A stretch of 64,000 bases of DNA, from NCBI RefSeq assembly GCF_024700885.2, contig NZ_CP117016.1, one strand, 5' to 3'. Below are positions 38,888 through 64,000 of the stretch, piece after piece (positions within the stretch are counted from its first letter, which is position 1; each line of letters opens with the position of its first letter). This DNA comes from Escherichia coli (GTDB lineage: Bacteria; Pseudomonadota; Gammaproteobacteria; Enterobacterales; Enterobacteriaceae). The notes below the pieces were generated by a model. The model was not told where the DNA came from. It searched no databases and saw nothing but the letters and a program-made list of their open reading frames with translations. Made by a program: the position numbers and the translations under genes.

Positions 38888-38902
38888 TGGCGTAAATCTT
38901 GC
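38888..38902 (+). promoter_or_regulatory. Candidate sigma54 (-24/-12) promoter for xdhABC
   Basis: TGGCGTA-AATC-TTGC matches TGGCAC-N5-TTGC with correct GG-N10-GC spacing, about 95 nt upstream of xdhA; TTATCA-CAT-TGAT and TGATA-CG-TATCA palindromes at 38751-38797. Confidence 0.45.
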
Positions 38903-38997
38903 CTGCTTAGACTAAATCTTTGCCATAAGAACCAAATGTTCAAATCGAGGGGATTTCTATGGAAGCGCGGGAAGCAACCGCTACGGGTGAATCTTGC

Positions 38998-41256
38998 ATG
39001 CGCGTCGATGCCATTGCTAAGGTCACCGGGCGGGCACGATATACTGACGATTATGTTATGGCGGGCATGTGTTACGCGAAATATGTACGTAGCCCTATCG
39101 CACATGGTTATGCCGTAAGTATTAATGATGAACAAGCCAGAAGTTTACCAGGCGTACTGGCGATTTTTACCTGGGAAGATGTACCTGATATCCCATTCGC
39201 TACAGCTGGGCATGCCTGGACACTTGACGAAAACAAGCGCGATACCGCCGATCGCGCACTGCTAACTCGCCATGTTCGTCATCATGGTGACGCCGTTGCC
39301 ATCGTCGTGGCCCGTGATGAACTCACGGCAGAAAAAGCGGCGCAATTGGTCAGCATTGAGTGGCAAGAATTACCCGTTATCACCACGCCAGAAGCGGCGC
39401 TGGCAGATGACGCTGCACCAATCCATAACGGCGGCAATTTACTAAAACAAAGCTCGATGTCGACGGGTAATGTCCAACAAACAATCGATGCCGCCGATTA
39501 CCAGGTGCAGGGGCACTATCAGACGCCGGTCATTCAACATTGTCACATGGAAAGCGTGACATCGCTGGCATGGATGGAGGATGACTCGCGAATTACCATC
39601 GTTTCCAGCACCCAGATCCCGCACATTGTTCGCCGTGTGGTTGGTCAGGCGCTGAATATTCCCTGGTCATGCGTACGAGTCATCAAACCGTTTGTCGGTG
39701 GCGGTTTTGGTAATAAACAGGATGTACTGGAAGAGCCAATGGCGGCATTCCTGACCAGCAAGCTTGGCGGCATTCCGGTGAAAGTTTCCCTTAGCCGTGA
39801 AGAGTGTTTCCTCGCAACCCGTACCCGCCACGCTTTTACTATTGACGGGCAAATGGGCGTGAACCGCGACGGAACATTGAAAGGTTATAGTCTGGATGTT
39901 CTGTCTAACACCGGCGCTTATGCATCTCACGGGCACTCCATCGCTTCTGCAGGGGGGAATAAAGTCGCTTACCTTTATCCTCGTTGTGCCTACGCTTACA
40001 GTTCAAAGACCTGCTATACCAACCTCCCCTCGGCTGGTGCGATGCGTGGTTATGGCGCGCCACAAGTCGTATTTGCCGTTGAGTCTATGCTTGATGACGC
40101 CGCGACAGCGTTAGGTATTGATCCTGTTGAAATTCGTTTACGCAACGCCGCCCGCGAAGGAGATGCTAATCCGCTCACAGGCAAACGTATTTACAGCGCA
40201 GGGTTGCCGGAGTGTCTTGAAAAAGGCCGGAAAATCTTTGAATGGGAAAAACGCCGTGCAGAGTGCCAGAACCAGCAAGGCAATTTACGCCGCGGCGTTG
40301 GCGTCGCCTGTTTTAGCTACACCTCTAACACCTGGCCTGTCGGCGTAGAAATTGCTGGCGCGCGCCTGTTGATGAATCAGGATGGAACCATCAACGTACA
40401 GAGTGGTGCCACGGAAATCGGCCAGGGTGCCGACACCGTGTTCTCGCAAATGGTGGCAGAAACCGTGGGGGTTCCGGTCAGCGACATTCGCGTTATTTCA
40501 ACACAAGATACCGACGTTACGCCGTTCGATCCCGGCGCATTTGCCTCACGCCAGAGCTATGTTGCCGCGCCCGCGCTACGCAGTGCGGCACTGTTATTAA
40601 AGGAGAAAATCATCGCTCACGCCGCTGTCATGCTACATCAGTCAGCGATGAATCTTACCTTGATAAAAGGCCATATCGTGCTGGTTGAACGACCGGAAGA
40701 GCCGTTAATGTCGTTAAAAGATTTGGCGATGGATGCCTTCTACCACCCTGAACGCGGCGGGCAGCTCTCTGCCGAAAGCTCCATCAAAACCACCACTAAC
40801 CCACCAGCGTTTGGCTGTACCTTTGTTGATCTGACGATCGATATTGCGCTGTGCAAAGTCACCATCAACCGCATCCTTAACGTTCATGATTCGGGCCATA
40901 TTCTTAATCCGTTGCTGGCAGAAGGTCAGGTACACGGCGGAATGGGAATGGGCATTGGCTGGGCGCTATTTGAAGAGATGATCATCGATGCGAAAAGCGG
41001 CGTGGTCCGTAACCCCAATCTGCTGGATTACAAAATGCCCACCATGCCGGATCTGCCACAACTGGAAAGCGCGTTCGTCGAAATCAATGAGCCGCAATCC
41101 GCATACGGACATAAGTCACTGGGTGAGCCACCAATAATTCCTGTTGCCGCTGCTATTCGTAACGCGGTGAAGATGGCTACCGGTGTTGCAATCAATACAC
41201 TGCCGCTGACGCCAAAACGGTTATATGAAGAGTTCCATCTGGCAGGATTGATTTGA
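38998..41256 (+). CDS. xdhA: Xanthine dehydrogenase molybdenum-binding subunit
   Basis: Molybdopterin-binding aldehyde oxidase/XDH family ORF; alternative in-frame upstream ATG at 38959 with GAGGGG RBS (start uncertain). Confidence 0.9.
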   Translation: MRVDAIAKVTGRARYTDDYVMAGMCYAKYVRSPIAHGYAVSINDEQARSLPGVLAIFTWEDVPDIPFATAGHAWTLDENKRDTADRALLTRHVRHHGDAVAIVVARDELTAEKAAQLVSIEWQELPVITTPEAALADDAAPIHNGGNLLKQSSMSTGNVQQTIDAADYQVQGHYQTPVIQHCHMESVTSLAWMEDDSRITIVSSTQIPHIVRRVVGQALNIPWSCVRVIKPFVGGGFGNKQDVLEEPMAAFLTSKLGGIPVKVSLSREECFLATRTRHAFTIDGQMGVNRDGTLKGYSLDVLSNTGAYASHGHSIASAGGNKVAYLYPRCAYAYSSKTCYTNLPSAGAMRGYGAPQVVFAVESMLDDAATALGIDPVEIRLRNAAREGDANPLTGKRIYSAGLPECLEKGRKIFEWEKRRAECQNQQGNLRRGVGVACFSYTSNTWPVGVEIAGARLLMNQDGTINVQSGATEIGQGADTVFSQMVAETVGVPVSDIRVISTQDTDVTPFDPGAFASRQSYVAAPALRSAALLLKEKIIAHAAVMLHQSAMNLTLIKGHIVLVERPEEPLMSLKDLAMDAFYHPERGGQLSAESSIKTTTNPPAFGCTFVDLTIDIALCKVTINRILNVHDSGHILNPLLAEGQVHGGMGMGIGWALFEEMIIDAKSGVVRNPNLLDYKMPTMPDLPQLESAFVEINEPQSAYGHKSLGEPPIIPVAAAIRNAVKMATGVAINTLPLTPKRLYEEFHLAGLI

Positions 41257-41266
41257 GGATAACATC

Positions 41267-42145
41267 ATGTTTGATTTTGCTTCTTACCATCGCGCAGCAA
41301 CCCTTGCCGATGCCATCAACCTGCTGGCTGACAACCCACAGGCCAAACTGCTCGCCGGTGGCACTGACGTACTGATTCAGCTCCACCATCACAATGACCG
41401 TTATCGCCATATTGTTGATATTCATAATCTGGCGGAGCTGCGGGGAATTACGCTAGCGGAAGATGGCTCACTACGTATCGGCTCTGCAACGACATTTACC
41501 CAGCTCATTGAAGATCCTGTAACTCAACGTCATCTCCCAGCGTTATGTGCTGCGGCCTCGTCCATTGCCGGACCGCAGATCCGTAACGTCGCTACCTACG
41601 GTGGAAATATTTGCAACGGTGCTACCAGTGCAGATTCTGCCACGCCAACGCTAATTTATGACGCGAAACTGGAGATTCACTCCCCGCGCGGTGTTCGTTT
41701 CGTCCCGATTAATGGCTTTCACACTGGGCCGGGCAAAGTGTCTCTTGAGCATGACGAAATCCTTGTCGCCTTTCATTTTCCGCCCCAGCCGAAAGAACAC
41801 GCGGGCAGCGCGCATTTTAAATATGCCATGCGCGACGCAATGGATATTTCAACGATTGGCTGCGCCGCACATTGCCGACTGGATAACGGCAATTTCAGCG
41901 AATTACGCCTGGCATTTGGTGTTGCCGCGCCAACGCCAATTCGCTGCCAACATGCCGAACAGACTGCACAAAATGCGCCATTAAACCTGCAAACACTGGA
42001 AGCCATCAGCGAATCAGTCCTGCAAGATGTCGCCCCGCGTTCTTCATGGCGGGCCAGTAAAGAGTTTCGTCTGCATCTCATCCAGACGATGACCAAAAAA
42101 GTGATTAGCGAAGCCGTCGCCGCGGCGGGGGGAAAATTGCAATGA
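41267..42145 (+). CDS. xdhB: Xanthine dehydrogenase FAD-binding subunit
   Basis: 292-aa CO dehydrogenase flavoprotein-like ORF (GGTDVL motif); overlaps xdhC start (ATGA). Confidence 0.95.
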
Positions 42146-42621
42146 ATCACAGCGAAACAATCACCATCGAATGCACCATTAACGGGATGCCTTTTCAGCT
42201 TCACGCCGCACCAGGCACGCCGCTCTCGGAATTACTCCGCGAACAAGGACTGCTAAGTGTCAAACAAGGGTGCTGCGTGGGTGAATGTGGTGCCTGTACG
42301 GTGCTGGTCGACGGCACAGCAATAGACAGTTGCTTATACCTTGCCGCCTGGGCTGAAGGAAAAGAGATCCGCACGCTGGAAGGTGAAGCGAAAGGCGGAA
42401 AACTTTCTCATGTACAGCAGGCTTATGCTAAATCCGGCGCAGTGCAGTGCGGGTTTTGTACGCCTGGCCTGATTATGGCTACCACAGCAATGCTGGCGAA
42501 ACCACGCGAGAAGCCATTAACCATTACGGAAATTCGTCGCGGACTGGCGGGAAATCTTTGTCGCTGCACGGGGTATCAGATGATTGTAAATACAGTTCTG
42601 GATTGCGAGAAAACGAAGTAA
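42142..42621 (+). CDS. xdhC: Xanthine dehydrogenase [2Fe-2S] subunit
   Basis: 159-aa ORF with both 2Fe-2S cysteine motifs ([11 protein letters not shown] ... QCGFCTPG ... CRCTGY). Confidence 0.95.
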
Positions 42622-42628
42622 AAGGATA

Positions 42629-42650
42629 TCCGGCCTGAATTCAGGCCGGA
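42629..42650. terminator. Palindromic hairpin between convergent xdhC and ygeV
   Basis: TCCGGCCTG-AATT-CAGGCCGGA; on the minus strand followed by a U-rich tract, so mainly a ygeV terminator, possibly bidirectional. Confidence 0.55.
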
Positions 42651-42660
42651 TTCACTGAGG

Positions 42661-44439
42661 TTATGTGTTTAACAACTCATATTTCTTAATCTTGCGATAG
42701 AGCGTAGCAATGCCGATGCCCAGTTCATCAGCAACTTGCTTCTTGCTGTTATGACGTGAAAGCGCCTCGCGGATCATTTGCTTTTCCATCTCCTCCAGCG
42801 CCGTGCCGCCCGCATCATCGAGTGCCAGGTGCGCCTCGTTGACCTCTGTTACATCACTTTGCTCCGTTGTGCCATTATTCAGCAGATTTGGCGGCAATAG
42901 CGTGCTGTCGATAACTTCACCTGAAGGAACCACGTTAACCAGATATTCCATCAAATTGCTTAACTCGCGCAGGTTTCCGGGCCAACGATGCTTACGCAAT
43001 ATTTCGACGACATCGGGAGCAATGCCCGGATAAACCGATCCCAGACGACGGGTATGCAGATGTAAAAAGTAATGCACCAGTAGTTCAATATCTTCCTGAC
43101 GTTCACGCAGCGGTGGCAGAGTTATCGGGATAACATTAAGTCGGTAGAAGAGATCTTCGCGGAATTTACCTTCGGCAATGAACTGGGCCAAATTCTGGTT
43201 AGTTGCAGAAATGATGCGAATGTCGACTTGTATTGGGCTACTGGCACCAATCGGCAGAATTTCACGCGCCTCAATAGCGCGCAGTAATTTAGCCTGCAAC
43301 ATTAATGGCATATCACCTATTTCATCGAGAAACAGCGTGCCCGTATTCGCCGCCTGAATCAACCCTGTTTTACCGTTGGCAGAAGCGCCAGTAAATGCGC
43401 CTTTAACATAACCGAACAGTTCGCTCTCCAGAAGCTGCTCCGGAATCGCGGCACAGTTGATAGCAATAAAGGGTTTATTCCGTCTTCCGCTCAACTTATG
43501 GATTGCACGGGCGACAACTTCTTTACCCGTGCCGCTTTCACCAACCACCATAACGCTGGATGGGCTGGGTGCAATACGGCTAATGAGTCGTTTTAATTGC
43601 CGCATAACACGGCACTCGCCAACCAATTGTTCAATATGCGGTTCATCAGGTGCATTTGCTACAGAAAAACTGGTATGCGATTGGTGAAACGCCATTAAAA
43701 ATAATTGTCGGCCCTGAATGTTATGCAATTGACCAATGATTAATTCACTTTTATCGTCCCACGAAACAATATGCTGCATATGTCCATGGGTAAAATTACT
43801 CTCAAATGTTAATGGTCTGAAACGGATAGGTTTCCCAATAATATTATTTTGTACAACACCAAGTGTTTTTAAGGCAGTCTGATTAACAAACTGAATCCGA
43901 TTATCGTCATCAACAACTAATACACCCTGATCCATATTATCGATCATGGTCGCGAATATTTTACTGATGTTATCTCCTGGTCCCTGATCCTCCAGAAGTT
44001 TCGAAACAAAAATGGTGGATATATGGCGAACGTAATCAGAAAATTCGCGTAAATTATCACTAATATGCTCTTGTTGCTCGTGGGTAACGGCAATCAAACT
44101 TATCACCCCAACACAACGATCCTGTAAAATGACAGGCGTACCCAGAAATGCTTTTTCGCGGCAATTTTCTTTACTATCGCAACCTTCGCAAAGGGGATCG
44201 AAGCGAGACTGTGTCACAACTTTTTCAGTTTTCGTTTCCAGGACGTGGCGGAGCAGGCGTGAGTTGCCGCTCAACTGGCGACCAAGAAACTTCCCATACG
44301 CGCCCGTTCCGGCGACGCGACACAAGTTTTCATCAACGATCTCAACCTCAAGCTGCAAAACGCTGGCAAGCATTCTGGCAAAACGCTGAATTGTCGGTTG
44401 AATTTGCATCAATACTGACTGCGTAGTAGCAAGCTCCAT
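42661..44439 (-). CDS. ygeV: Sigma54-dependent transcriptional activator (bacterial enhancer-binding protein)
   Basis: 592-aa ORF with AAA+ sigma54 interaction domain: Walker A GESGTGKE, GAFTGA motif (KGAFTGA), ESELFGY, and C-terminal HTH. Confidence 0.9.
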   Translation of the reverse strand: MELATTQSVLMQIQPTIQRFARMLASVLQLEVEIVDENLCRVAGTGAYGKFLGRQLSGNSRLLRHVLETKTEKVVTQSRFDPLCEGCDSKENCREKAFLGTPVILQDRCVGVISLIAVTHEQQEHISDNLREFSDYVRHISTIFVSKLLEDQGPGDNISKIFATMIDNMDQGVLVVDDDNRIQFVNQTALKTLGVVQNNIIGKPIRFRPLTFESNFTHGHMQHIVSWDDKSELIIGQLHNIQGRQLFLMAFHQSHTSFSVANAPDEPHIEQLVGECRVMRQLKRLISRIAPSPSSVMVVGESGTGKEVVARAIHKLSGRRNKPFIAINCAAIPEQLLESELFGYVKGAFTGASANGKTGLIQAANTGTLFLDEIGDMPLMLQAKLLRAIEAREILPIGASSPIQVDIRIISATNQNLAQFIAEGKFREDLFYRLNVIPITLPPLRERQEDIELLVHYFLHLHTRRLGSVYPGIAPDVVEILRKHRWPGNLRELSNLMEYLVNVVPSGEVIDSTLLPPNLLNNGTTEQSDVTEVNEAHLALDDAGGTALEEMEKQMIREALSRHNSKKQVADELGIGIATLYRKIKKYELLNT

Positions 44440-44808
44440 AGCTTTACCTTCCAGACTTACTTAAAAGTCGATCATTGAAGACGTTGATGGTTCACAGATC
44501 ATGATGATATTAACTCAGGCGAAATTGGCTTTGATAAAAACATAAGATTTTTATCACTTTCTAATGAAATTATGGAAGAGATATCACATTTCTATATCAA
44601 TATGAGAATTACGGCGGTGAGTTTATCAAACTGAAGAGAGAGCGCCTGTTCCTTTATCTTATTTCTGATACTTAGCAGCAAATAAATAACGCGATAAAAA
44701 AAGCCAAACGTTTTCGTATTTTACAAACAACCAGAAGCTGGCATCAATTTGTGATCAACCCCACACATTACCCGTCAAATTAGTCTTTTGCAGCCGCTTG
44801 GATAATTC

Positions 44809-44824
44809 TGGCATAGTTATTGTT
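44809..44824 (+). promoter_or_regulatory. Weak candidate sigma54 promoter upstream of ygeW
   Basis: TGGCATA-GTTA-TTGT: -24 element good, -12 is GT rather than GC; TGATAA/TTATCA-type repeats further upstream (44531-44633). Confidence 0.3.
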
Positions 44825-44915
44825 AGTCCCAGGTATAGCTGTGAAAAGACCAATCACTTTTGGCAAGTCACAGTGAAATAAACCTCTTTGCCTGTCATTC
44901 CACTACCGGGACTTT

Positions 44916-46106
44916 ATGATGAAAACTGTTAATGAGCTGATTAAGGATATCAATTCGCTGACCTCTCACCTTCACGAGAAAGATTTTTTGTTAACGTGGG
45001 AACAGACGCCAGATGAACTGAAACAAGTACTGGACGTTGCCGCAGCATTAAAAGCACTGCGTGCTGAAAACATCTCAACCAAAGTCTTTAATAGTGGATT
45101 AGGTATTTCCGTATTCCGCGACAACTCCACCCGTACCCGTTTCTCTTATGCTTCCGCGCTTAACCTGCTCGGCCTTGCACAGCAAGATCTCGACGAAGGC
45201 AAATCACAAATCGCTCACGGCGAAACCGTGCGTGAAACCGCCAATATGATCTCCTTCTGCGCCGATGCCATCGGTATTCGTGACGATATGTATCTGGGCG
45301 CAGGCAACGCCTATATGCGTGAAGTTGGCGCTGCACTTGATGACGGTTACAAGCAGGGTGTGCTGCCGCAACGTCCGGCTTTAGTGAACCTGCAATGCGA
45401 TATTGACCACCCGACTCAGTCAATGGCTGACCTGGCATGGTTACGTGAACACTTTGGTTCACTGGAAAACCTGAAAGGTAAAAAAATCGCCATGACCTGG
45501 GCCTACTCCCCAAGCTATGGCAAACCGCTCTCTGTACCACAAGGCATCATCGGTCTGATGACTCGCTTCGGTATGGATGTCACCCTGGCCCATCCGGAAG
45601 GCTACGACCTGATCCCGGATGTCGTTGAAGTCGCTAAAAACAATGCTAAAGCCTCCGGCGGTAGCTTCCGTCAGGTCACCAGCATGGAAGAAGCCTTCAA
45701 AGACGCAGACATCGTTTATCCGAAGTCATGGGCACCTTACAAAGTGATGGAAGAGCGTACTGAATTGCTGCGTGCGAACGATCACGAAGGCTTAAAAGCA
45801 CTGGAAAAACAGTGTCTGGCACAGAACGCGCAACACAAAGACTGGCATTGTACTGAAGAGATGATGGAACTGACCCGTGATGGCGAAGCCCTGTACATGC
45901 ACTGCCTGCCAGCTGATATCAGCGGCGTATCCTGCAAAGAAGGTGAAGTGACTGAAGGCGTATTCGAAAAATACCGTATCGCGACCTACAAAGAAGCCAG
46001 CTGGAAGCCTTATATCATCGCCGCGATGATCCTGTCCCGCAAATACGCCAAACCAGGTGCACTGCTCGAGCAACTGCTGAAAGAAGCGCAAGAACGCGTG
46101 AAATAA
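44916..46106 (+). CDS. ygeW: Carbamoyltransferase-family protein (ATCase/OTCase fold)
   Basis: 396-aa ORF with carbamoyl-phosphate binding STRTR motif (DNSTRTRFSYASA). Confidence 0.9.
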   Translation: MMKTVNELIKDINSLTSHLHEKDFLLTWEQTPDELKQVLDVAAALKALRAENISTKVFNSGLGISVFRDNSTRTRFSYASALNLLGLAQQDLDEGKSQIAHGETVRETANMISFCADAIGIRDDMYLGAGNAYMREVGAALDDGYKQGVLPQRPALVNLQCDIDHPTQSMADLAWLREHFGSLENLKGKKIAMTWAYSPSYGKPLSVPQGIIGLMTRFGMDVTLAHPEGYDLIPDVVEVAKNNAKASGGSFRQVTSMEEAFKDADIVYPKSWAPYKVMEERTELLRANDHEGLKALEKQCLAQNAQHKDWHCTEEMMELTRDGEALYMHCLPADISGVSCKEGEVTEGVFEKYRIATYKEASWKPYIIAAMILSRKYAKPGALLEQLLKEAQERVK

Positions 46107-47417: not shown

Positions 47418-48629
47418 ATGGCTAAGAATATTCCATTCAAACTGATTCTTGAAAAAGCAAAAGATTACCAGGCGGACATGACTCGCTTCCTGCGCGACAT
47501 GGTTGCTATTCCCAGTGAAAGCTGCGACGAAAAACGCGTAGTACATCGTATTAAAGAAGAGATGGAAAAAGTCGGCTTCGATAAAGTTGAAATCGACCCG
47601 ATGGGCAACGTTCTCGGTTATATCGGCCACGGCCCGCGTCTGGTGGCAATGGACGCTCATATTGATACCGTCGGCATTGGCAACATCAAAAACTGGGACT
47701 TCGATCCGTACGAAGGCATGGAAACTGATGAGCTGATCGGTGGTCGCGGTACTTCCGACCAGGAAGGCGGCATGGCATCTATGGTTTATGCCGGTAAAAT
47801 CATTAAAGACCTCGGTCTGGAAGATGAATATACCCTGCTGGTTACCGGTACTGTGCAGGAAGAAGACTGCGACGGTCTGTGCTGGCAGTACATTATTGAA
47901 CAATCCGGCATTCGCCCGGAATTTGTGGTCAGTACCGAACCAACCGACTGCCAGGTATACCGTGGTCAGCGCGGTCGTATGGAAATTCGTATTGATGTTC
48001 AGGGTGTTAGCTGCCACGGTTCTGCGCCAGAACGCGGTGACAACGCCATTTTCAAAATGGGTCCGATTCTTGGCGAATTACAAGAACTCTCCCAACGTCT
48101 GGGTTATGACGAATTCCTCGGCAAAGGCACCCTCACCGTTTCTGAAATCTTCTTCACATCCCCAAGCCGTTGCGCTGTAGCAGATAGCTGCGCCGTCTCT
48201 ATTGACCGCCGTCTGACCTGGGGCGAAACCTGGGAAGGCGCGCTGGACGAAATCCGCGCCCTGCCTGCAGTACAGAAAGCTAACGCGGTTGTTTCTATGT
48301 ACAACTACGACCGTCCGTCCTGGACTGGCCTGGTTTACCCAACCGAATGCTACTTCCCGACCTGGAAAGTGGAAGAAGATCACTTCACCGTTAAAGCACT
48401 GGTGAATGCCTACGAAGGTCTGTTTGGCAAAGCGCCGGTTGTTGATAAGTGGACCTTCTCAACTAACGGCGTATCTATCATGGGCCGTCACGGCATTCCG
48501 GTGATCGGCTTTGGCCCAGGTAAAGAACCTGAAGCGCATGCACCTAACGAAAAAACCTGGAAATCTCACCTGGTGACCTGTGCCGCGATGTACGCGGCAA
48601 TCCCGTTAAGCTGGCTGGCAACCGAATAA
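47418..48629 (+). CDS. ygeY: M20-family peptidase / deacylase
   Basis: 403-aa ORF of the ArgE/DapE/M20 family. Confidence 0.9.
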
Positions 48630-54436: not shown

Positions 54437-54451
54437 TGGCAAGAGTGGTGC
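54437..54451 (+). promoter_or_regulatory. Candidate sigma54 promoter upstream of ygfK
   Basis: TGGCAAG-AGTG-GTGC with GG-N10-GC spacing, about 85 nt upstream of the ygfK ATG; perfect palindrome TTATCA-TAA-TGATAA at 54263-54277. Confidence 0.3.
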
Positions 54452-54533
54452 GATTGTTGCTCTATCCCCCTAAACCACCGGATTTCTCAACACCGGTCAC
54501 TCAATGATATCTGTATAAGCTAAGGAGAGGGTT

Positions 54534-57500
54534 ATGGGGGATATTATGCGTCCCATTCCGTTTGAGGAACTTTTGACGCGCATATTTGATGAATACCAAC
54601 AACAACGCTCAATCTTTGGTATTCCCGAGCAACAGTTTTACTCACCCGTAAAAGGTAAAACTGTTAGCGTCTTCGGTGAAACCTGTGCCACTCCCGTCGG
54701 CCCTGCCGCTGGCCCGCACACGCAGCTCGCGCAAAATATTGTCACTTCCTGGCTGACTGGCGGGCGCTTCATCGAACTAAAAACCGTCCAAATTCTTGAC
54801 CGTCTGGAGCTGGAAAAGCCCTGTATCGATGCCGAAGACGAGTGCTTTAACACCGAATGGTCTACCGAATTTACCCTGCTTAAAGCCTGGGATGAATACC
54901 TCAAAGCCTGGTTTGCCCTGCACCTTCTCGAAGCGATGTTCCAGCCTTCTGATTCCGGTAAATCGTTCATCTTTAATATGAGCGTCGGTTATAACCTCGA
55001 AGGTATTAAGCAACCGCCGATGCAACAGTTCATCGACAATATGATGGATGCATCTGACCATCCGAAATTCGCTCAATATCGCGATACGCTGAATAAATTA
55101 CTCCAGGATGACGCATTTTTAGCCCGCCACGGATTGCAGGAAAAACGCGAATGCCTGCAGGCCTTACCGGCACGCATCCCCACCAGCATGGTAGAAGGCG
55201 TTACCCTCTCCACCATGCACGGCTGTCCTCCGCATGAAATCGAAGCCATTTGCCGCTACATGCTGGAAGAAAAAGGGCTCAATACCTTTGTGAAACTCAA
55301 CCCGACCTTACTGGGGTACGCGCGTGTTCGTGAGATCCTCGATGTCTGCGGTTTCGGTTACATAGGCTTAAAAGAAGAGTCATTTGATCACGACCTCAAG
55401 CTGACGCAAGCGCTGGAAATGCTGGAACGCCTGATGGTACTGGCAAAAGAAAAATCACTCGGCTTTGGCGTAAAACTGACTAACACTCTCGGCACCATCA
55501 ACAATAAAGGCGCACTGCCTGGTGAAGAGATGTATATGTCAGGCCGTGCGCTGTTCCCGCTCTCCATCAATGTTGCAGCAGTTCTCTCTCGCGCCTTTGA
55601 CGGCAAACTGCCCATTTCTTATTCCGGTGGTGCCAGTCAGCTGACTATCCGCGATATTTTTGATACTGGTATTCGCCCTATTACTATGGCAACCGACCTG
55701 CTGAAACCTGGCGGCTATCTGCGCTTAAGTGCCTGCATGCGCGAGCTGGAAGGCTCCGACGCCTGGGGGCTTGACCATGTTGACGTCGAACGCCTGAACA
55801 AACTGGCAGCAGACGCGTTAACCATGGAATACACTCAGAAACACTGGAAGCCAGAAGAGCGTATTGAAGTGGCAGAAGACCTGCCGCTGACCGACTGCTA
55901 CGTTGCACCGTGCGTTACTGCTTGCGCCATTAAACAGGATATTCCGGAATACATCCGTCTGCTTGGCGAACACCGCTATGCCGACGCACTGGAACTCATC
56001 TACCAACGCAACGCCCTGCCCGCCATTACCGGTCATATTTGCGATCACCAGTGCCAATACAACTGTACCCGCCTGGATTACGACAGTGCGCTGAATATCC
56101 GCGAACTGAAAAAAGTCGCGCTGGAAAAAGGTTGGGATGAATATAAGCAACGCTGGCACAAACCAGCCGGTTCTGGTTCACGCCATCCGGTTGCCGTGAT
56201 TGGTGCAGGTCCGGCGGGTCTGGCAGCAGGTTACTTCCTTGCCAGAGCGGGCCATCCGGTTACGCTGTTTGAACGCGAAGCCAATGCGGGCGGCGTGGTG
56301 AAAAATATCATTCCTCAGTTCCGTATTCCTGCAGAGTTAATTCAGCACGATATCGATTTTGTTGCCGCTCACGGCGTGAAATTTGAGTATGGCTGCTCAC
56401 CCGATTTGACCGTTGAACAGTTAAAAAATCAGGGCTTCCACTATGTTCTGATTGCCACCGGCACTGATAAAAATAGCGGTGTGAAACTGGCGGGCGACAA
56501 CCAAAATGTCTGGAAATCACTCCCCTTCCTGCGTGAATACAACAAGGGCACAGCGCTCAAGCTGGGCAAACATGTGGTCGTTGTCGGGGCGGGTAACACG
56601 GCAATGGACTGCGCTCGTGCGGCGTTACGCGTTCCAGGCGTAGAAAAAGCAACGGTCGTTTACCGTCGTTCACTGCAAGAGATGCCAGCATGGCGCGAAG
56701 AGTATGAAGAAGCGTTGCACGACGGTGTGGAGTTCCGTTTCCTGAATAATCCGGAACGTTTCGATGCTGATGGCACCTTAACCTTGCGCGTTATGTCGCT
56801 TGGCGAACCTGATGAGAAAGGTCGTCGCCGTCCGGTTGAAACCAACGAAACAGTAACACTGCATGTAGACAGCCTGATCACCGCCATTGGTGAACAGCAG
56901 GATACTGAAGCCCTGAATGCGATGGGCGTGCCGCTGGACAAAAACGGCTGGCCAGACGTCGACCATAATGGCGAAACTCGTCTGACTGACGTCTTTATGA
57001 TCGGCGACGTACAGCGCGGACCATCCTCCATTGTCGCTGCTGTCGGAACCGCGCGTCGGGCGACCGATGCCATCCTTAGTCGGGAAAACATCCGTTCCCA
57101 CCAGAACGATAAATACTGGAACAACGTCAATCCGGCGGAAATCTATCAACGCAAAGGCGATATCTCTATCACCCTGGTGGATAGCGACGATCGTGACGCG
57201 TTTGTCGCCCAGGAAGCCGCACGCTGCCTTGAATGTAACTACGTTTGCAGCAAGTGTGTGGATGTCTGCCCGAACCGCGCCAACGTATCCATTGCGGTCC
57301 CTGGCTTCCAGATCCGTTTCCAGACGCTGCACCTCGACGCTTACTGTAACGAATGCGGCAACTGCGCTCAGTTCTGCCCGTGGAACGGTAAACCGTACAA
57401 AGACAAAATCACCGTCTTCAGCCTGTCGCAAGACTTTGATAACAGCAGCAACCCTGGCTTCCTTGTGGAAGATTGCCGGGTACGAGTACGTCTGAATAAC

Positions 57501-57632
57501 CAAAGCTGGGTGTTAAACATCGACAGCGAAGGTCAGTTCAACAACGAACCACCGGAGCTGAACGATATGTGCCGCATTATTAGCCATGTCCACCAGCATC
57601 ATCATTATCTGCTGGGCCGCGTGGAGGTGTAA
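54534..57632 (+). CDS. ygfK: Large Fe-S flavoprotein oxidoreductase (GltD-like FAD/NAD(P) domain + 2x[4Fe-4S])
   Basis: 1032-aa ORF; dinucleotide-binding VAVIGAGPAGLAAG; ferredoxin-type motifs CLECNYVCSKCVDVCP and CNECGNCAQFCP. Confidence 0.9.
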   Translation: MGDIMRPIPFEELLTRIFDEYQQQRSIFGIPEQQFYSPVKGKTVSVFGETCATPVGPAAGPHTQLAQNIVTSWLTGGRFIELKTVQILDRLELEKPCIDAEDECFNTEWSTEFTLLKAWDEYLKAWFALHLLEAMFQPSDSGKSFIFNMSVGYNLEGIKQPPMQQFIDNMMDASDHPKFAQYRDTLNKLLQDDAFLARHGLQEKRECLQALPARIPTSMVEGVTLSTMHGCPPHEIEAICRYMLEEKGLNTFVKLNPTLLGYARVREILDVCGFGYIGLKEESFDHDLKLTQALEMLERLMVLAKEKSLGFGVKLTNTLGTINNKGALPGEEMYMSGRALFPLSINVAAVLSRAFDGKLPISYSGGASQLTIRDIFDTGIRPITMATDLLKPGGYLRLSACMRELEGSDAWGLDHVDVERLNKLAADALTMEYTQKHWKPEERIEVAEDLPLTDCYVAPCVTACAIKQDIPEYIRLLGEHRYADALELIYQRNALPAITGHICDHQCQYNCTRLDYDSALNIRELKKVALEKGWDEYKQRWHKPAGSGSRHPVAVIGAGPAGLAAGYFLARAGHPVTLFEREANAGGVVKNIIPQFRIPAELIQHDIDFVAAHGVKFEYGCSPDLTVEQLKNQGFHYVLIATGTDKNSGVKLAGDNQNVWKSLPFLREYNKGTALKLGKHVVVVGAGNTAMDCARAALRVPGVEKATVVYRRSLQEMPAWREEYEEALHDGVEFRFLNNPERFDADGTLTLRVMSLGEPDEKGRRRPVETNETVTLHVDSLITAIGEQQDTEALNAMGVPLDKNGWPDVDHNGETRLTDVFMIGDVQRGPSSIVAAVGTARRATDAILSRENIRSHQNDKYWNNVNPAEIYQRKGDISITLVDSDDRDAFVAQEAARCLECNYVCSKCVDVCPNRANVSIAVPGFQIRFQTLHLDAYCNECGNCAQFCPWNGKPYKDKITVFSLSQDFDNSSNPGFLVEDCRVRVRLNNQSWVLNIDSEGQFNNEPPELNDMCRIISHVHQHHHYLLGRVEV

Positions 57633-57634
57633 TC

Positions 57635-58963
57635 ATGTTGATTCTGAAGAATGTCACCGCAGTGCAGTTACACCCGGCGAAAGTGCAGGAAGGCGTTGAT
57701 ATCGCCATCGAAAATGATGTGATTGTCGCTATCGGCGATGCCCTGACGCAACGCTACCCCGATGCCAGCTACAAAGAGATGCATGGTCGGATTGTGATGC
57801 CAGGAATTGTCTGCTCGCACAACCATTTTTACTCGGGGCTGTCCCGCGGAATTATGGCAAACATCGCCCCCTGCCCGGATTTCATCTCAACGCTGAAAAA
57901 TCTCTGGTGGCGACTCGATCGCACCCTTGATGAAGAGTCGCTCTATTACAGCGGACTGATTTGTTCCCTGGAAGCGATTAAGGGCGGATGTACATCGGTT
58001 ATCGATCACCATGCCTCTCCGGCGTATATCGACGGGTCGCTCTCCACATTGCGCAACGCATTTTTAAAAGTTGGCCTGCGCGCGATGACCTGTTTTGAAA
58101 CTACTGACCGTAACAACGGTATCAAAGAGTTGCAGGAAGGTGTAGAAGAAAACATCCGCTTCGCCCGTCAGATTGATGAGGCGAAGAAAGCAGCAACCGA
58201 ACCGTATCTGGTGGAAGCACATATCGGCGCTCACGCGCCGTTTACCGTGCCGGATGCCGGTCTGGAGATGCTGCGTGAAGCCGTGAAAGCCACAGGTCGT
58301 GGTTTGCACATTCACGCTGCGGAAGACCTTTATGACGTTTCCTACAGTCACCACTGGTACGGCAAAGACCTGCTGGCACGACTGGCGCAATTCGATCTCA
58401 TCGACAGCAAAACGCTGGTCGCTCATGGGCTGTACTTGTCGAAAGATGACATCGCCCTACTCAATCAGCGCGATGCGTTCCTAGTGCATAACGCCCGTTC
58501 AAACATGAACAACCATGTCGGCTACAACCATCACCTTAGCGACATCCGCAATCTGGCGTTGGGAACTGACGGCATTGGTTCGGACATGTTTGAAGAGATG
58601 AAATTTGCCTTCTTTAAACATCGCGATGCGGGTGGTCCGCTGTGGCCTGACAGTTTTGCCAAAGCACTGGCTAACGGCAACGAACTGATGAGCCGCAACT
58701 TTGGCGCGAAATTTGGCCTTCTGGAAGCCGGTTACAAAGCCGATTTAACCATTTGCGATTACAACTCGCCGACACCGCTGCTGGCAGACAATATCGCCGG
58801 GCATATCGCTTTCGGTATGGGCTCAGGCAGCGTTCATAGCGTGATGGTCAATGGCGTGATGGTCTATGAAGACCGTCAGTTTAACTTCGATTGCGATTCC
58901 ATTTATGCGCAAGCCAGAAAAGCCGCTGCCAGTATGTGGCGTCGGATGGATGCGCTGGCATAA
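57635..58963 (+). CDS. ssnA: Amidohydrolase (cytosine/guanine deaminase-like)
   Basis: 442-aa ORF with metal-binding HxH (CSHNHFY); 2 nt after ygfK stop. Confidence 0.9.
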   Translation: MLILKNVTAVQLHPAKVQEGVDIAIENDVIVAIGDALTQRYPDASYKEMHGRIVMPGIVCSHNHFYSGLSRGIMANIAPCPDFISTLKNLWWRLDRTLDEESLYYSGLICSLEAIKGGCTSVIDHHASPAYIDGSLSTLRNAFLKVGLRAMTCFETTDRNNGIKELQEGVEENIRFARQIDEAKKAATEPYLVEAHIGAHAPFTVPDAGLEMLREAVKATGRGLHIHAAEDLYDVSYSHHWYGKDLLARLAQFDLIDSKTLVAHGLYLSKDDIALLNQRDAFLVHNARSNMNNHVGYNHHLSDIRNLALGTDGIGSDMFEEMKFAFFKHRDAGGPLWPDSFAKALANGNELMSRNFGAKFGLLEAGYKADLTICDYNSPTPLLADNIAGHIAFGMGSGSVHSVMVNGVMVYEDRQFNFDCDSIYAQARKAAASMWRRMDALA

Positions 58964-59013: not shown

Positions 59014-59793
59014 ATGATTGAACAATTTTTCAGGCCCGACTCTGTCGAACAGGCGCTGGAACTGAAGCGCCGCTACAAGGATGAAGCCGTCTGGTTCGCC
59101 GGGGGCAGCAAACTCAACGCTACACCAACCCGTACCGATAAAAAGATTGCCATTTCCTTACAGGATCTGGAACTGGACTGGGTTGACTGGGATAACGGTG
59201 CACTGCGGATTGGCGCAATGTCTCGCTTGCAGCCACTGCGTGATGCGCGATTTATTCCTGCAGCACTGCGTGAAGCCCTCGGCTTTGTCTACTCTCGCCA
59301 TGTTCGTAATCAGTCGACCATTGGTGGTGAAATCGCCGCCCGGCAGGAAGAGTCTGTGCTGCTTCCCGTCCTGCTGGCACTGGATGCTGAACTGGTTTTT
59401 GGCAATGGCGAAACACTGTCAATCGAAGAGTACCTGGCCTGCCCATGCGATCGCCTGCTAACCGAAATTATCATTAAAGATCCGTATCGCACCTGTGCGA
59501 CCCGCAAAATTAGCCGTTCTCAGGCAGGTTTAACCGTCGTGACGGCAGCCGTTGCAATGACAGACCACGACGGTATGCGAATTGCGCTGGATGGCGTCGC
59601 CAGTAAAGCCCTGCGTCTGCACGATGTTGAAAAACAAAATCTGGAAGGCAATGCACTTGAACAGGCTGTCGCCAACGCCATTTTCCCGCAGGAAGATTTG
59701 CGGGGCAGCGTGGCCTATAAACGCTATATCACGGGAGTTCTGGTAGCCGACCTTTATGCCGACTGCCAACAGGCTGGGGAGGAAGCCGTATGA
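59014..59793 (+). CDS. ygfM: FAD-binding molybdopterin dehydrogenase subunit
   Basis: 259-aa CO dehydrogenase flavoprotein-like ORF; overlaps xdhD start by 4 nt. Confidence 0.9.
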   Translation: MIEQFFRPDSVEQALELKRRYKDEAVWFAGGSKLNATPTRTDKKIAISLQDLELDWVDWDNGALRIGAMSRLQPLRDARFIPAALREALGFVYSRHVRNQSTIGGEIAARQEESVLLPVLLALDAELVFGNGETLSIEEYLACPCDRLLTEIIIKDPYRTCATRKISRSQAGLTVVTAAVAMTDHDGMRIALDGVASKALRLHDVEKQNLEGNALEQAVANAIFPQEDLRGSVAYKRYITGVLVADLYADCQQAGEEAV

Positions 59794-62660
59794 TCATCCA
59801 CTTTACTTTAAATGGCGCGCCTCAGGAGCTAACCGTTAATCCAGGCGAAAACGTGCAAAAGCTGTTGTTTAACATGGGAATGCACTCTGTACGCAACAGC
59901 GATGATGGATTCGGGTTTGCCGGTTCTGACGCAATTATCTGTAACGGTAATATCGTTAACGCGTCCTTGCTTATCGCCGCACAGTTAGAGAAGGCAGATA
60001 TTCGTACCGCAGAGTCTCTGGGCAAATGGAACGAGTTAAGTCTGGTTCAACAGGCAATGGTTGATGTTGGCGTGGTGCAGTCTGGTTATAACGATCCAGC
60101 TGCGGCTCTGATTATCACCGATCTTCTCGATCGCATTGCCACACCGACCCGCGAAGAGATCGACGACGCGCTTTCTGGTTTGTTCAGCCGCGATGCAGGC
60201 TGGCAACAATACTATCAGGTCATTGAACTGGCGGTTGCACGTAAAAATAATCCGCAGGCCACCATTGATATCGCTCCAACTTTCCGCGATGACCTTGAAG
60301 TCATTGGTAAGCATTATCCTAAAACTGATGCCGCGAAAATGGTGCAGGCGAAACCCTGCTATGTTGAAGACCGCGTAACGGCTGACGCCTGCGTCATTAA
60401 AATGTTACGTAGCCCACACGCTCACGCACTGATTACTCATCTGGATATCAGCAAAGCTGAAGCCTTACCGGGCGTTGTTCACGTTATTACTCACCTGAAT
60501 TGCCCGGATATCTACTATACCCCGGGCGGTCAGAGCGCACCGGAACCGTCACCGCTTGACCGCCGTATGTTCGGCAAGAAAATGCGTCACGTCGGCGATC
60601 GCGTTGCTGCGGTCGTCGCTGAAAGTGAAGAAATTGCGCTCGAAGCACTGAAGCTCATCGACGTTGAATATGAAGTGCTTAAACCTGTAATGTCGATCGA
60701 CGAAGCAATGGCGGAAGATGCGCCTGTCGTGCACGATGAACCGGTGGTGTATGTTGCTGGTGCGCCAGATACTCTGGAAGACGATAACAGCCATGCAGCC
60801 CAGCGCGGCGAACATATGATCATCAACTTCCCGATCGGTTCTCGCCCCCGTAAAAATATCGCCGCCAGTATTCATGGTCATATTGGCGATATGGACAAAG
60901 GCTTTGCCGATGCCGATGTGATCATTGAGCGAACCTATAACTCAACGCAGGCACAGCAGTGCCCGACTGAAACACATATCTGCTTTACCCGTATGGACGG
61001 CGATCGTCTGGTGATCCACGCCTCCACCCAGGTACCATGGCACTTACGCCGCCAGGTCGCGCGCCTCGTGGGCATGAAACAGCATAAAGTTCATGTCATT
61101 AAAGAGCGAGTTGGCGGCGGTTTTGGTTCCAAACAAGACATCCTGCTGGAAGAAGTGTGCGCCTGGGCAACCTGCGTGACCGGACGTCCGGTACTGTTCC
61201 GCTACACCCGTGAAGAAGAGTTTATTGCTAACACCTCTCGCCACGTCGCGAAAGTCACCGTCAAACTGGGCGCGAAAAAAGATGGTCGCCTGACGGCAGT
61301 GAAGATGGATTTCCGCGCCAACACGGGCCCTTACGGCAACCACTCACTCACCGTACCGTGTAACGGACCGGCGCTGTCGCTGCCGTTATATCCGTGTGAT
61401 AACGTCGATTTCCAGGTCACCACCTACTACAGCAACATTTGCCCAAATGGTGCTTATCAGGGTTATGGCGCGCCGAAAGGTAACTTCGCTATCACCATGG
61501 CATTAGCGGAACTGGCTGAACAGTTACAGATCGACCAGCTGGAAATTATCGAACGTAACCGTGTACACGAAGGGCAAGAGCTGAAAATTCTCGGTGCAAT
61601 CGGTGAAGGTAAAGCGCCGACCTCCGTTCCTTCCGCCGCCAGCTGCGCACTGGAAGAGATCCTGCGTCAGGGTCGCGAGATGATCCACTGGTCGTCACCG
61701 AAACCGCAAAATGGTGACTGGCACATCGGTCGCGGCGTCGCCATTATCATGCAGAAATCGGGTATCCCAGATATCGATCAGGCTAACTGCATGATCAAAC
61801 TGGAATCGGACGGCACCTTTATCGTTCATTCTGGCGGTGCGGATATTGGTACTGGTTTGGATACTGTGGTGACGAAACTGGCAGCAGAAGTGCTGCACTG
61901 CCCACCGCAGGACGTGCATGTTATCTCCGGTGATACCGATCATGCGTTGTTTGATAAAGGCGCATATGCCTCGTCCGGTACTTGCTTCTCGGGTAACGCG
62001 GCGCGTTTGGCAGCAGAAAATCTGCGGGAGAAAATTCTGTTCCACGGTGCACAAATGTTGGGTGAGCCAGTGGCAGATGTCCAACTAGCAACGCCGGGCG
62101 TCGTGCGCGGCAAGAAAGGCGAAGTTAGTTTCGGGGATATTGCCCATAAAGGCGAAACCGGCACCGGCTTTGGTTCACTGGTGGGAACTGGCAGTTATAT
62201 CACGCCTGATTTCGCCTTCCCGTATGGCGCAAACTTCGCTGAAGTTGCCGTCAACGCGCGTACGGGTGAAATCCGCCTGGATAAATTCTACGCCTTGCTG
62301 GACTGCGGTACACCGGTCAACCCGGAATTAGCATTGGGACAAATCTACGGTGCTACCCTGCGAGCTATCGGCCACAGTATGAGCGAAGAGATCATTTATG
62401 ACGCCGAAGGTCACCCGTTAACGCGTGATTTACGCAGTTACGGTGCACCGAAAATTGGTGACATTCCGCGTGATTTCCGCGCAGTGCTGGTGCCGAGCGA
62501 CGATAAAGTCGGCCCGTTCGGGGCGAAATCGATCTCGGAAATCGGTGTAAATGGCGCAGCTCCGGCGATTGCTACCGCAATTCACGATGCCTGCGGCATC
62601 TGGTTACGCGAATGGCATTTCACACCGGAGAAAATACTCACCGCGCTGGAAAAAATATAA
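59790..62660 (+). CDS. xdhD: Molybdopterin-binding hydroxylase with degenerate N-terminal Fe-S-like domain (putative hypoxanthine/purine oxidase)
   Basis: 956-aa ORF; C-terminal about 780 aa is aldehyde oxidase/XDH Mo-binding type; N-terminal about 165 aa aligns to XdhC but carries a single cysteine. Confidence 0.9.
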   Translation: MIIHFTLNGAPQELTVNPGENVQKLLFNMGMHSVRNSDDGFGFAGSDAIICNGNIVNASLLIAAQLEKADIRTAESLGKWNELSLVQQAMVDVGVVQSGYNDPAAALIITDLLDRIATPTREEIDDALSGLFSRDAGWQQYYQVIELAVARKNNPQATIDIAPTFRDDLEVIGKHYPKTDAAKMVQAKPCYVEDRVTADACVIKMLRSPHAHALITHLDISKAEALPGVVHVITHLNCPDIYYTPGGQSAPEPSPLDRRMFGKKMRHVGDRVAAVVAESEEIALEALKLIDVEYEVLKPVMSIDEAMAEDAPVVHDEPVVYVAGAPDTLEDDNSHAAQRGEHMIINFPIGSRPRKNIAASIHGHIGDMDKGFADADVIIERTYNSTQAQQCPTETHICFTRMDGDRLVIHASTQVPWHLRRQVARLVGMKQHKVHVIKERVGGGFGSKQDILLEEVCAWATCVTGRPVLFRYTREEEFIANTSRHVAKVTVKLGAKKDGRLTAVKMDFRANTGPYGNHSLTVPCNGPALSLPLYPCDNVDFQVTTYYSNICPNGAYQGYGAPKGNFAITMALAELAEQLQIDQLEIIERNRVHEGQELKILGAIGEGKAPTSVPSAASCALEEILRQGREMIHWSSPKPQNGDWHIGRGVAIIMQKSGIPDIDQANCMIKLESDGTFIVHSGGADIGTGLDTVVTKLAAEVLHCPPQDVHVISGDTDHALFDKGAYASSGTCFSGNAARLAAENLREKILFHGAQMLGEPVADVQLATPGVVRGKKGEVSFGDIAHKGETGTGFGSLVGTGSYITPDFAFPYGANFAEVAVNARTGEIRLDKFYALLDCGTPVNPELALGQIYGATLRAIGHSMSEEIIYDAEGHPLTRDLRSYGAPKIGDIPRDFRAVLVPSDDKVGPFGAKSISEIGVNGAAPAIATAIHDACGIWLREWHFTPEKILTALEKI

Positions 62661-62669
62661 GTAATAAAT

Positions 62670-62699
62670 GGCCGCTTCGGCGGCCTGTTTCTCTGTTTG
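62670..62699 (+). terminator. Intrinsic terminator downstream of xdhD
   Basis: Stem GGCCGC-TTCG-GCGGCC followed by TGTTTCTCTGTTTG. Confidence 0.55.
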
Positions 62700-62824
62700 A
62701 ACGACGACCAAATAGTGACTGCGAAAATGAGATAAGCCGTTCTCAAGGCGTCCTGCGCCCCAAATTCGTGGGAATTTATTTTACTGATTCAGATGATCAA
62801 ATTTACTTTAAAAGGAGTGAAGGG

Positions 62825-64000
62825 ATGTCTGATATAAACCATGCAGGTTCTGACCTTATATTTGAACTGGAGGATCGCCCTCCCTTTCATCAGGCTCTCG
62901 TTGGTGCCATTACCCATCTGTTGGCAATTTTCGTTCCGATGGTAACCCCCGCGTTAATCGTGGGTGCGGCCTTACAGCTTTCCGCTGAAACAACTGCCTA
63001 TCTTGTTTCAATGGCGATGATCGCCTCTGGTATTGGTACCTGGTTACAAGTAAACCGCTATGGCATCGTCGGTTCTGGCCTACTCTCAATTCAGTCAGTC
63101 AATTTTTCATTTGTTACGGTCATGATTGCGCTGGGCAGCAGCATGAAAAGCGACGGTTTTCACGAAGAGTTAATCATGTCGTCGCTCCTCGGCGTCTCCT
63201 TCGTTGGCGCATTTCTGGTTGTCGGCTCTTCTTTTATCCTGCCCTATTTACGTCGGGTTATTACGCCTACCGTCAGCGGCATTGTGGTGCTGATGATCGG
63301 CTTAAGCCTGATTAAAGTCGGCATTATCGATTTTGGTGGAGGATTTGCAGCCAAAAGCAGCGGTACATTCGGCAATTACGAACATCTCGGCGTTGGTTTA
63401 TTGGTTTTGATTGTGGTGATCGGCTTTAACTGCTGTCGCAGTCCGTTGCTACGCATGGGAGGGATCGCCATTGGGCTATGTGTCGGCTATATCGCATCGT
63501 TATGCCTGGGCATGGTGGATTTCAGCAGTATGCGCAATTTGCCGTTAATCACCATCCCACATCCGTTCAAATACGGCTTTAGTTTTAGCTTCCATCAGTT
63601 CCTGGTGGTTGGCACGATTTATCTGCTTAGCGTGCTGGAAGCTGTCGGCGATATCACCGCCACGGCAATGGTTTCCCGCCGCCCCATTCAGGGGGAAGAG
63701 TATCAGTCCCGACTGAAAGGCGGCGTGCTGGCAGACGGTCTGGTTTCTGTTATCGCCTCCGCTGTCGGATCATTACCCTTAACCACGTTTGCGCAAAATA
63801 ATGGGGTTATTCAGATGACTGGCGTCGCTTCACGTTATGTCGGGCGAACCATCGCGGTAATGCTGGTTATCCTCGGCTTATTTCCGATGATTGGCGGCTT
63901 CTTCACGACCATTCCCTCGGCAGTTCTGGGAGGCGCAATGACGTTGATGTTTTCCATGATTGCCATCGCAGGGATTCGCATCATCATCACCAACGGTTTA
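62825..64000 (+). CDS. xanQ: Xanthine permease (NCS2 family), N-terminal 392 codons (runs off window end)
   Basis: ATG at 62825 with RBS AAGGAG; frame open to window end; MSDINHAGSDLIFELEDRPPFHQALVGAITHLLAIFVPMV... polytopic; not in ORF track (no stop within window). Confidence 0.85.
   Translation, partial: MSDINHAGSDLIFELEDRPPFHQALVGAITHLLAIFVPMVTPALIVGAALQLSAETTAYLVSMAMIASGIGTWLQVNRYGIVGSGLLSIQSVNFSFVTVMIALGSSMKSDGFHEELIMSSLLGVSFVGAFLVVGSSFILPYLRRVITPTVSGIVVLMIGLSLIKVGIIDFGGGFAAKSSGTFGNYEHLGVGLLVLIVVIGFNCCRSPLLRMGGIAIGLCVGYIASLCLGMVDFSSMRNLPLITIPHPFKYGFSFSFHQFLVVGTIYLLSVLEAVGDITATAMVSRRPIQGEEYQSRLKGGVLADGLVSVIASAVGSLPLTTFAQNNGVIQMTGVASRYVGRTIAVMLVILGLFPMIGGFFTTIPSAVLGGAMTLMFSMIAIAGIRIIITNGL

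Follow-up and report, generated by a model that had tools for sequence, protein, structure and literature searches.

Gene content of the block

Positions 38888-64000 of a 64,000-nucleotide stretch of the Escherichia coli chromosome (contig NZ_CP117016.1; the whole stretch is referred to here as the window) hold a contiguous block of genes for purine breakdown. We consider it almost certain that this block represents, in E. coli, the reductive (anaerobic) uric-acid/2,8-dioxopurine cluster, accompanied by a feeder xanthine dehydrogenase (XDH), cofactor maturation genes, a permease, and a sigma54 activator. The block is 100% identical to strains MLI114 and SMS-3-5 and is present at a coverage of at least 80% in 5147 of 5426 complete E. 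coli genomes. The sigma54 -24 element of the xdhA promoter starts exactly at the first position of the block, 38888, and beyond the window the locus continues in complete genomes with guaD, ghxQ, ygfS, ygfT, and uacT. Gene coordinates were taken from the open reading frame (ORF) list and from the RefSeq annotation of a 100%-identical strain. A translation check found 16 genes intact, each with a single terminal stop, in addition to xanQ, which runs off the end of the window. All genes named in a first-pass annotation of this DNA are therefore present and intact, in the order it had given.

Families were assigned using NCBIfam models at their curated cut-offs and, for YgeV, Pfam. Every protein scores above its NCBIfam cut-off, usually by a wide margin, with the exception of YgeV, which matches only generic sigma54-activator models; the earlier family assignments of the enzymes held throughout this profile check. 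The block opens with the equivalogs xdhA (38959-41256, + strand; NF007426, 1483 bits), xdhB (41267-42145, +; NF007427), and xdhC (42142-42621, +; NF007387), which together (38959-42621) encode the molybdenum (Mo), FAD, and iron-sulfur (Fe-S) subunits of xanthine dehydrogenase. Convergent with xdhC lies ygeV, also named isrR (42661-44439, -), encoding a sigma54 enhancer-binding protein of GAF-PAS-AAA+-HTH layout. Five genes then follow one another on the + strand with gaps of 47-57 bp: ygeW, a knotted carbamoyltransferase (44919-46106; NF005538, 825 bits) whose product matches PDB entry 3Q98 over its full length (E 2.9e-269); ygeX/dpaL, a pyridoxal phosphate (PLP)-dependent diaminopropionate ammonia-lyase (46164-47360; TIGR03528, 651 bits); ygeY, an M20 hydrolase (47418-48629; TIGR03526, 722 bits); hyuA, a hydantoinase (48682-50067; TIGR02033, 676 bits); and yqeA/arcC, a carbamate kinase (50115-51047; TIGR00746, 386 bits).

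Downstream, yqeB (51088-52713, -; TIGR03309, 412 bits) and yqeC (52761-53531, -; TIGR03172, 238 bits) are markers of the labile-selenium cofactor trait of Mo hydroxylases and adjoin the hydroxylase genes, while mocA (53634-54212, +; TIGR03310, 210 bits) encodes a molybdenum cofactor cytidylyltransferase. The Fe-S flavoenzyme gene ygfK (54534-57632, +) matches its model over its full length (TIGR03315, 1774 bits), and residues 440-850 of the protein resemble NfnA, GltD, and dihydropyrimidine dehydrogenase (DPD). It is followed by the amidohydrolase gene ssnA (57635-58963, +; TIGR03314, 735 bits against a cut-off of 455) and, adjoining ssnA, by ygfM (59014-59793, +; TIGR03312, 487 bits) and xdhD (59790-62660, +; TIGR03313, 2116 bits), which overlap by 4 bp and encode an FAD subunit and a Mo/Fe-S subunit, respectively. 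For this pair, the closest PDB relative is 4-hydroxybenzoyl-CoA reductase, the PDB holding no structure of XdhD or YgfK, and Glu606, the residue stressed by Li et al. (2025, Life Metab, PMC12507026), is present in the XdhD of the window. The xanthine/proton symporter gene xanQ (62825 onward, +; TIGR00801, 409 bits; TIGR03173, 349 bits) closes the block with its first 391 codons. The RefSeq and NCBIfam names of ygfK ("putative selenate reductase subunit"), hyuA ("D-phenylhydantoinase"), and ssnA ("putative aminohydrolase") trail the experiments described below.

The reductive urate pathway

The SsnA family (IPR017700/TIGR03314) is the pathway marker used by Li et al. (2025). The block encodes this marker together with XdhD and YgfM beside ssnA, the reductase YgfK, and the set HyuA, YgeW, YgeY, and YgeX plus carbamate kinase. 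The system is already characterized and is not new, its pathway having been published between 2023 and 2025. A uric-acid-inducible cluster comprising ygeX, ygeY, ygeW, and ygfK together with ssnA was described in gut bacteria, including E. coli, in 2023 (Liu 2023, Cell; Kasahara 2023). Li et al. (2025) then rebuilt the route with purified E. coli enzymes, and Liu et al. (2025, bioRxiv 10.1101/2025.04.24.650524; later Nat Microbiol) independently reported the same route on the basis of isotope tracing, E. coli and Clostridium sporogenes mutants, in vitro reconstitution, and ATP formation; a commentary (PMC12990295) reconciles the two studies. The first-pass annotation had the overall logic right: purine import, a reaction on a Mo enzyme, ring opening by two amidohydrolases, removal of carbamoyl groups, a PLP-dependent lyase, and ATP made from carbamoyl phosphate, along with genes for cofactor maturation and for a sigma54 activator. 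Its statement that substrates, reaction order, and electron acceptors are largely unassigned was correct until about 2022 but is outdated now that the pathway, for the most part with proteins from E. coli, has been rebuilt in vitro and confirmed by genetic work.

XdhABC supplies the pathway by oxidizing hypoxanthine and xanthine to urate, and a ΔxdhA mutant loses xanthine consumption. Of the purines proposed earlier, urate is the substrate of the ring-cleaving branch; xanthine and hypoxanthine enter only after this oxidation. XdhD, which co-purifies with YgfM, strips urate of its 6-oxo group in an NADH-dependent reaction, yielding 2,8-dioxopurine, or "yanthine" (Li et al., 2025, PMC12507026). 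The pair is thus a urate 6-dehydroxylase (2,8-dioxopurine dehydrogenase, DOPDH); XdhD, previously read as a hydroxylase, is in fact a reductive dehydroxylase that draws on NADH via YgfM. YgfK had been taken for an Fe-S flavoprotein subunit of XdhD; it is instead a separate NAD(P)H:2,8-dioxopurine reductase that works with SsnA. YgfK dearomatizes the purine ring and SsnA opens the reduced pyrimidine ring at once, drawing the YgfK reaction forward, such that the two enzymes with NAD(P)H convert 2,8-dioxopurine mainly to ureidomethylhydantoin (Li et al., 2025).

The name "putative selenate reductase subunit YgfK" and the models Se_sel_red_Mo and Se_sel_red_FAD could be taken to mean that YgfK, YgfM, and XdhD form a selenate reductase and that selenium metabolism, not the breakdown of purines, is what the cluster is for, a reading to which the neighboring selenium-cofactor genes yqeB and yqeC lend some color. 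We reject it as very improbable on the published enzymology of YgfK, which neither needs nor gains from selenate, requires NADPH (Liu et al., 2025, 10.1101/2025.04.24.650524), and is selective for 2,8-dioxopurine, while XdhD-YgfM acts on urate to give that same compound. The selenate label is a legacy one, and the selenium link is better explained by a selenium-containing Mo cofactor. MocA makes the molybdopterin cytosine dinucleotide (MCD) cofactor for XdhA- and XdhD-type enzymes, and MocA, YqeB, and YqeC mature a cofactor containing Mo and probably also selenium. The C. sporogenes Mo enzymes DOPDH and XDH need SelD and selenium (Liu et al., 2025); selD lies outside the window.

The remaining steps of the urate route lead from the opened ring to central metabolism. 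HyuA opens the hydantoin of ureidomethylhydantoin, and also acts on 5-ureidodihydrouracil, to give 2,3-diureidopropionate, from which YgeW removes one ureido group by phosphorolysis as carbamoyl phosphate. YqeA uses the carbamoyl phosphate to form ATP, and YgeW and YqeA together yield ATP in vitro (Liu et al., 2025). YgeY hydrolyzes the remaining ureido group to leave 2,3-diaminopropionate, which YgeX converts in the last step to pyruvate and ammonia. HyuA and YgeX also show in vitro the activities that their names as D-hydantoinase and diaminopropionate lyase imply, and E. coli does not grow on diaminopropionate, as might be expected if the block were a loose neighborhood of unrelated salvage and detoxification enzymes, among them an arginine-type carbamate kinase. 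This is highly unlikely, given that the mutants accumulate consecutive intermediates of a single route, that the gene set co-occurs across phyla, and that the genes form one iModulon with shared sigma54 promoters and a common upstream palindrome (see below). [quoted passage not shown]

Comparison with known systems places the block more precisely. The xdhA-uacT locus of E. coli K-12 and Nissle comes from the same species and has the same genes in the same order, the ygeV-ygeW spacer being 99% identical to that of K-12; the differences from K-12 are strain-level only, namely a one-base change in the ygeW promoter (TGGCAT for TGGCAC) and an IS1 element in place of an ETT2 remnant upstream. The clusters of C. 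sporogenes and C. difficile share SsnA, HyuA, YgeY, YgeX, the Mo dehydroxylase, YqeB/YqeC, and the intermediates, but the clostridial XdhAC lacks an FAD subunit and, unlike XdhD-YgfM, does not use NAD(P)H. C. difficile further has the PydA-like UacX for YgfK and the hydrolase UacY for YgeW/YqeA, so that no ATP is formed at that step. The Rabinowitz xanthinase pathway likewise degrades purines anaerobically, starting with a reversible xanthine dehydrogenase step, but it cleaves the ring of xanthine with other enzymes, gives glycine and formiminoglycine, and shares no genes with the present cluster.

Parts of the route also recur in other pathways. The PydA/PydB/PydC pyrimidine route has in common with it a reductive dearomatization by a flavin/Fe-S enzyme, ring opening by an amidohydrolase, and decarbamoylation, and the central part of YgfK is similar to dihydropyrimidine dehydrogenase in its N-terminal half; the present substrate is instead a purine that needs Mo-dependent dehydroxylation first, two rings are opened, and one decarbamoylation is phosphorolytic. 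As in the arginine deiminase pathway, a carbamoyltransferase running in reverse and a carbamate kinase give substrate-level ATP, but YgeW is knotted (PDB 3Q98) and its substrate is a diureido acid rather than citrulline.

Against assigning the pathway to this strain as it stands are the following points. Urate conversion was demonstrated with K-12 and Nissle proteins and mutants and is predicted for the present strain from its genes, and urate use by E. coli K-12 is itself weak and medium-dependent. The ygeW promoter reads TGGCAT here, where K-12 and nine other genera have TGGCAC. The selenium dependence of the Mo enzymes is a C. sporogenes result and not an E. coli one. The target of YgeW is disputed, being the 3-ureido group according to Liu et al. 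(2025) and the 2-ureido group, with albizziin as product, according to Li et al. (2025), so that the intermediate is albizziin or 3-amino-2-ureidopropionate depending on the study. Formate, AegA, and YgfT (outside the window) may also feed electrons into the pathway.

The significance of the cluster is already established: by means of it, gut bacteria can clear urate coming from the host, of relevance to gout and chronic kidney disease, and gain ATP and pyruvate, and E. coli Nissle engineered to overexpress cluster genes lowered serum urate in mice. For genome scanning, the value of the locus is that of a positive control, in which a real pathway was reconstructed from sequence alone. What the present analysis adds is solely a regulatory layer, a modest residual lead.

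Sigma54 promoters and a shared upstream palindrome

Three sigma54 promoters were located in the block from sequence, independently of the published sites mapped by chromatin immunoprecipitation sequencing (ChIP-seq). The promoter of xdhABC (38887-38903, +; CTGGCGTAAATCTTGCC) is invariant in 4 genera, and its 17-mer is identical to ChIP-seq site OS29 (Bonocora 2015). The promoter of ygeWXY-hyuA-yqeA (44808-44824, +; CTGGCATAGTTATTGTT, which in K-12 is CTGGCACACTTATTGTT) corresponds to site OS30 (Bonocora 2015) apart from the variant of the present strain, and a peak for RpoN in genomic systematic evolution of ligands by exponential enrichment (gSELEX) falls in the ygeV-ygeW spacer. Alignment shows its TGGCA..TTATTGTTA to be invariant across 10 genera, with a -12 element of TTGTT rather than TTGC. 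The promoter of ygfK-ssnA-ygfM-xdhD (54445-54461, +; GTGGTGCGATTGTTGCT) is kept in all seven genera with sequence at that place and is identical to site OS31 (Bonocora 2015). A generic sigma54 pattern allowing up to two mismatches gave 64 matches against 45 expected and is too unspecific on its own; the true sites are recognized because intergenic position, conservation, and published ChIP-seq add to the pattern match. A scan for sigma70 promoters did no better than chance (19 matches, 22 expected). The sigma54 association put forward in the first-pass annotation is borne out by these promoters and by the AAA+ domain of YgeV with its GAFTGA motif.

The one-base change at ygeW falls in the -24 element (44809-44816), which is TGGCATAG here and TGGCACAC in K-12. 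A 66-bp stretch containing the promoter is matched at 99% or better in 192 of 5426 E. coli genomes, with 4203 genomes in the 90-95% band. The TGGCAT allele might contribute to strain differences in urate use.

Co-regulation across the block, the absence of which had been named beforehand as grounds for abandoning a purine pathway, is a matter of record: the cluster genes form one YgeV iModulon, the cluster is induced by uric acid, and ygeV is reported to be necessary for anaerobic urate use. Glucose repression is likewise documented.

We compared orthologous loci from nine other enterobacterial genera, with 196 kb of sequence in the census. The spacers are otherwise poorly conserved, and the islands that they share are the sigma54 elements, a palindrome with flanking TATCA-type half-sites, and a CRP-type box. 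In as many as 10 enterobacterial genera, the palindrome, TATCA-N3-TGAKA, stands at conserved distances 5' of the sigma54 promoters of xdhA, ygeW, ygfK, and uacT. Upstream of xdhA, two TATCA-N3-TGAK copies (TATCACATTGAT, 38756-38767; CTCATATTGATA, 38778-38789) form a candidate YgeV enhancer, or upstream activating sequence (UAS), and both are kept in Trabulsiella, Citrobacter amalonaticus, and Atlantibacter by alignment and census alike. In the ygeV-ygeW spacer, the enhancer block (44583-44640) carries a core palindrome (TATCAATATGAGA, 44595-44607) flanked by ATCACA and TTTATCAA and forms a conserved island in a 10-genus alignment whose overall mean identity is 60%. The site 5' of ygfK is a perfect palindrome (TTATCATAATGATAA, 54263-54277) and likewise a candidate YgeV enhancer, in which TTATCA-N3-TGATA is invariant in the 8 genera aligned.

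Within the 196 kb, the palindrome is almost confined to four places: the ygeV-ygeW spacer (9 of 9 loci), the region 5' of ygfK (8 of 8 with sequence there), the region 5' of xdhA (3 of 3), and the region upstream of a major facilitator superfamily (MFS) gene. Measured from the palindrome center to the TGG of the promoter, the distance is 208-211 bp at ygeW in 10 of 10 genera and 105 and 126 bp at xdhA. For ygfK, six genera share a spacing of 156 bp, and E. coli and C. amalonaticus have one of 176-178 bp, two values that lie two helical turns apart. Three exact copies of a 12-mer, TATCAATATGAG, lie in the window where 0.00 are expected, one 5' of xdhA, one in the ygeV-ygeW spacer, and one inside ygeY, and a fourth copy lies just outside the window in the ygfT-uacT spacer (L001 38747-38759).

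Copies of the palindrome or the 12-mer in coding sequence were seen at 46440-46452 in ygeX and 47656-47667 in ygeY, the ygeX copy being present in C. amalonaticus as well (L086 8001-8013); these could be internal enhancer sites or chance matches. Kluyvera, Intestinirhabdus, and Raoultella carry a 549-amino-acid MFS gene beside ygeV in place of xdhABC (L082 11813-11981, L083 11794-12170, L084 11837-11995). In these three genera, the gene is preceded by the palindrome and by a sigma54-type promoter of its own, and the transporter gene is probably an extra member of the regulon.

YgeV, CRP, and flanking features

YgeV has Pfam matches to PAS, Sigma54_activat (PF00158, E 2e-70), AAA_lid, and HTH_8, and carries a Walker A motif (GESGTGKE) at residue 300, GAFTGA at 347, and a Walker B motif (DEIG) at 372; by these motifs, YgeV is a competent sigma54 activator. 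Its N-terminus is GAF-like plus PAS, and the Pfam scan found no Response_reg receiver (REC) domain, so that the published label of "orphan response regulator" does not fit. Residues 1-265, modeled with AlphaFold (mean predicted local distance difference test, pLDDT, 75), form a tandem of GAF-like and PAS domains, among whose best PDB matches is the GAF-PAS sensor region of DhaR. The GAF-PAS-AAA+-HTH_8 layout is that of DhaR/PrpR-type activators, the N-terminal model being nearest to the DhaR sensor.

The GAF-like domain contains a nearly invariant cysteine motif, C84-x2-C87-x5-C93 (44161-44190, -; codons 84-93), which is kept even in 23-27%-identical Firmicute homologs encoded beside xdh or ygeWXY-ssnA genes and which is not known from DhaR. 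It could be a metal or redox site. An E. coli YgeV query gave only E. coli variants, and diversity was obtained with an Enterobacter ortholog as query; generic AAA+ matches dominated a contig scan with YgeV, with L002 the only close ortholog and L003-L005 distant homologs. A literature search for "UacR" as a possible alias of YgeV returned nothing relevant.

By its placement, the palindrome is a candidate YgeV operator. Against this stands the fact that YgeV binding is deduced from the arrangement of sites, and that another factor could bind there. The palindrome resembles parts of the Fur box, the FNR box, and the IHF core consensus. Sites for these three proteins were set aside, without a direct check, on the grounds that the motif occurs just at YgeV-iModulon promoters and that its distance to the sigma54 promoter is kept. 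A search of the literature with the motif string returned unrelated primers only; no description of the palindrome was thus found in the searchable literature, which is not proof of its being undescribed.

Between enhancer and promoter lie CRP-type boxes. At ygeW, a CRP-like box (TGTGATCAACCCCACA, 44750-44765) has its GTGA and C.CA positions invariant in 10 genera, and Li et al. (2025, PMC12507026) report a native Crp site in the ygeV-ygeW spacer together with glucose repression. At ygfK, a putative box of consensus form (TGTGAGTTCATTCACA, 54367-54382) was read from the sequence; its TGTGA...TCACA is kept in 5 of 8 genera and degraded in EnterobBisph1, Kluyvera, and Raoultella. This arrangement suggests that CRP acts on the sigma54 promoters at ygeW and ygfK, and a CRP box between enhancer and promoter would explain glucose repression. 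The sigma54-dependent prpBCDE promoter is also CRP-dependent.

We lean modestly toward a model that combines these elements, in which the palindrome is the YgeV operator, a signal is sensed through the C-x2-C-x5-C site of the GAF domain, and CRP serves as a co-activator or architectural factor. YgeV bound to the palindrome, some 105-210 bp upstream, would then switch on the sigma54 promoters of xdhA, ygeW, and ygfK in response to a signal sensed via the GAF domain, be it urate, 2,8-dioxopurine, redox state, or a metal. If true, this operator model would delimit the regulon and offer a means of de-repressing uricolysis in probiotic strains.

The leader just 5' of the ygeW start (44890-44912; GCCnGTCATTcCACtACCAGGA) is kept in 10 genera well beyond the extent of a Shine-Dalgarno sequence. 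It matched no Rfam family, and within the cluster as a whole the Rfam scan detected neither a riboswitch nor any other RNA family. Between the convergent xdhC and ygeV, a terminator scan picked out a GC-rich hairpin with a 10-bp stem (42628-42651), a pattern match only, which scored as terminator-like on the minus strand alone. Upstream of the block, a single IS1 (36476-37638) lies between yqeH and the tRNA-Gly gene glyU, where K-12 has an approximately 10.8-kb remnant of the ETT2 type III secretion system extending from yqeI to ygeQ. Farther upstream, the small RNAs OmrA and OmrB are encoded between aas and galR (24408-24495 and 24611-24692, -), an ordinary arrangement.

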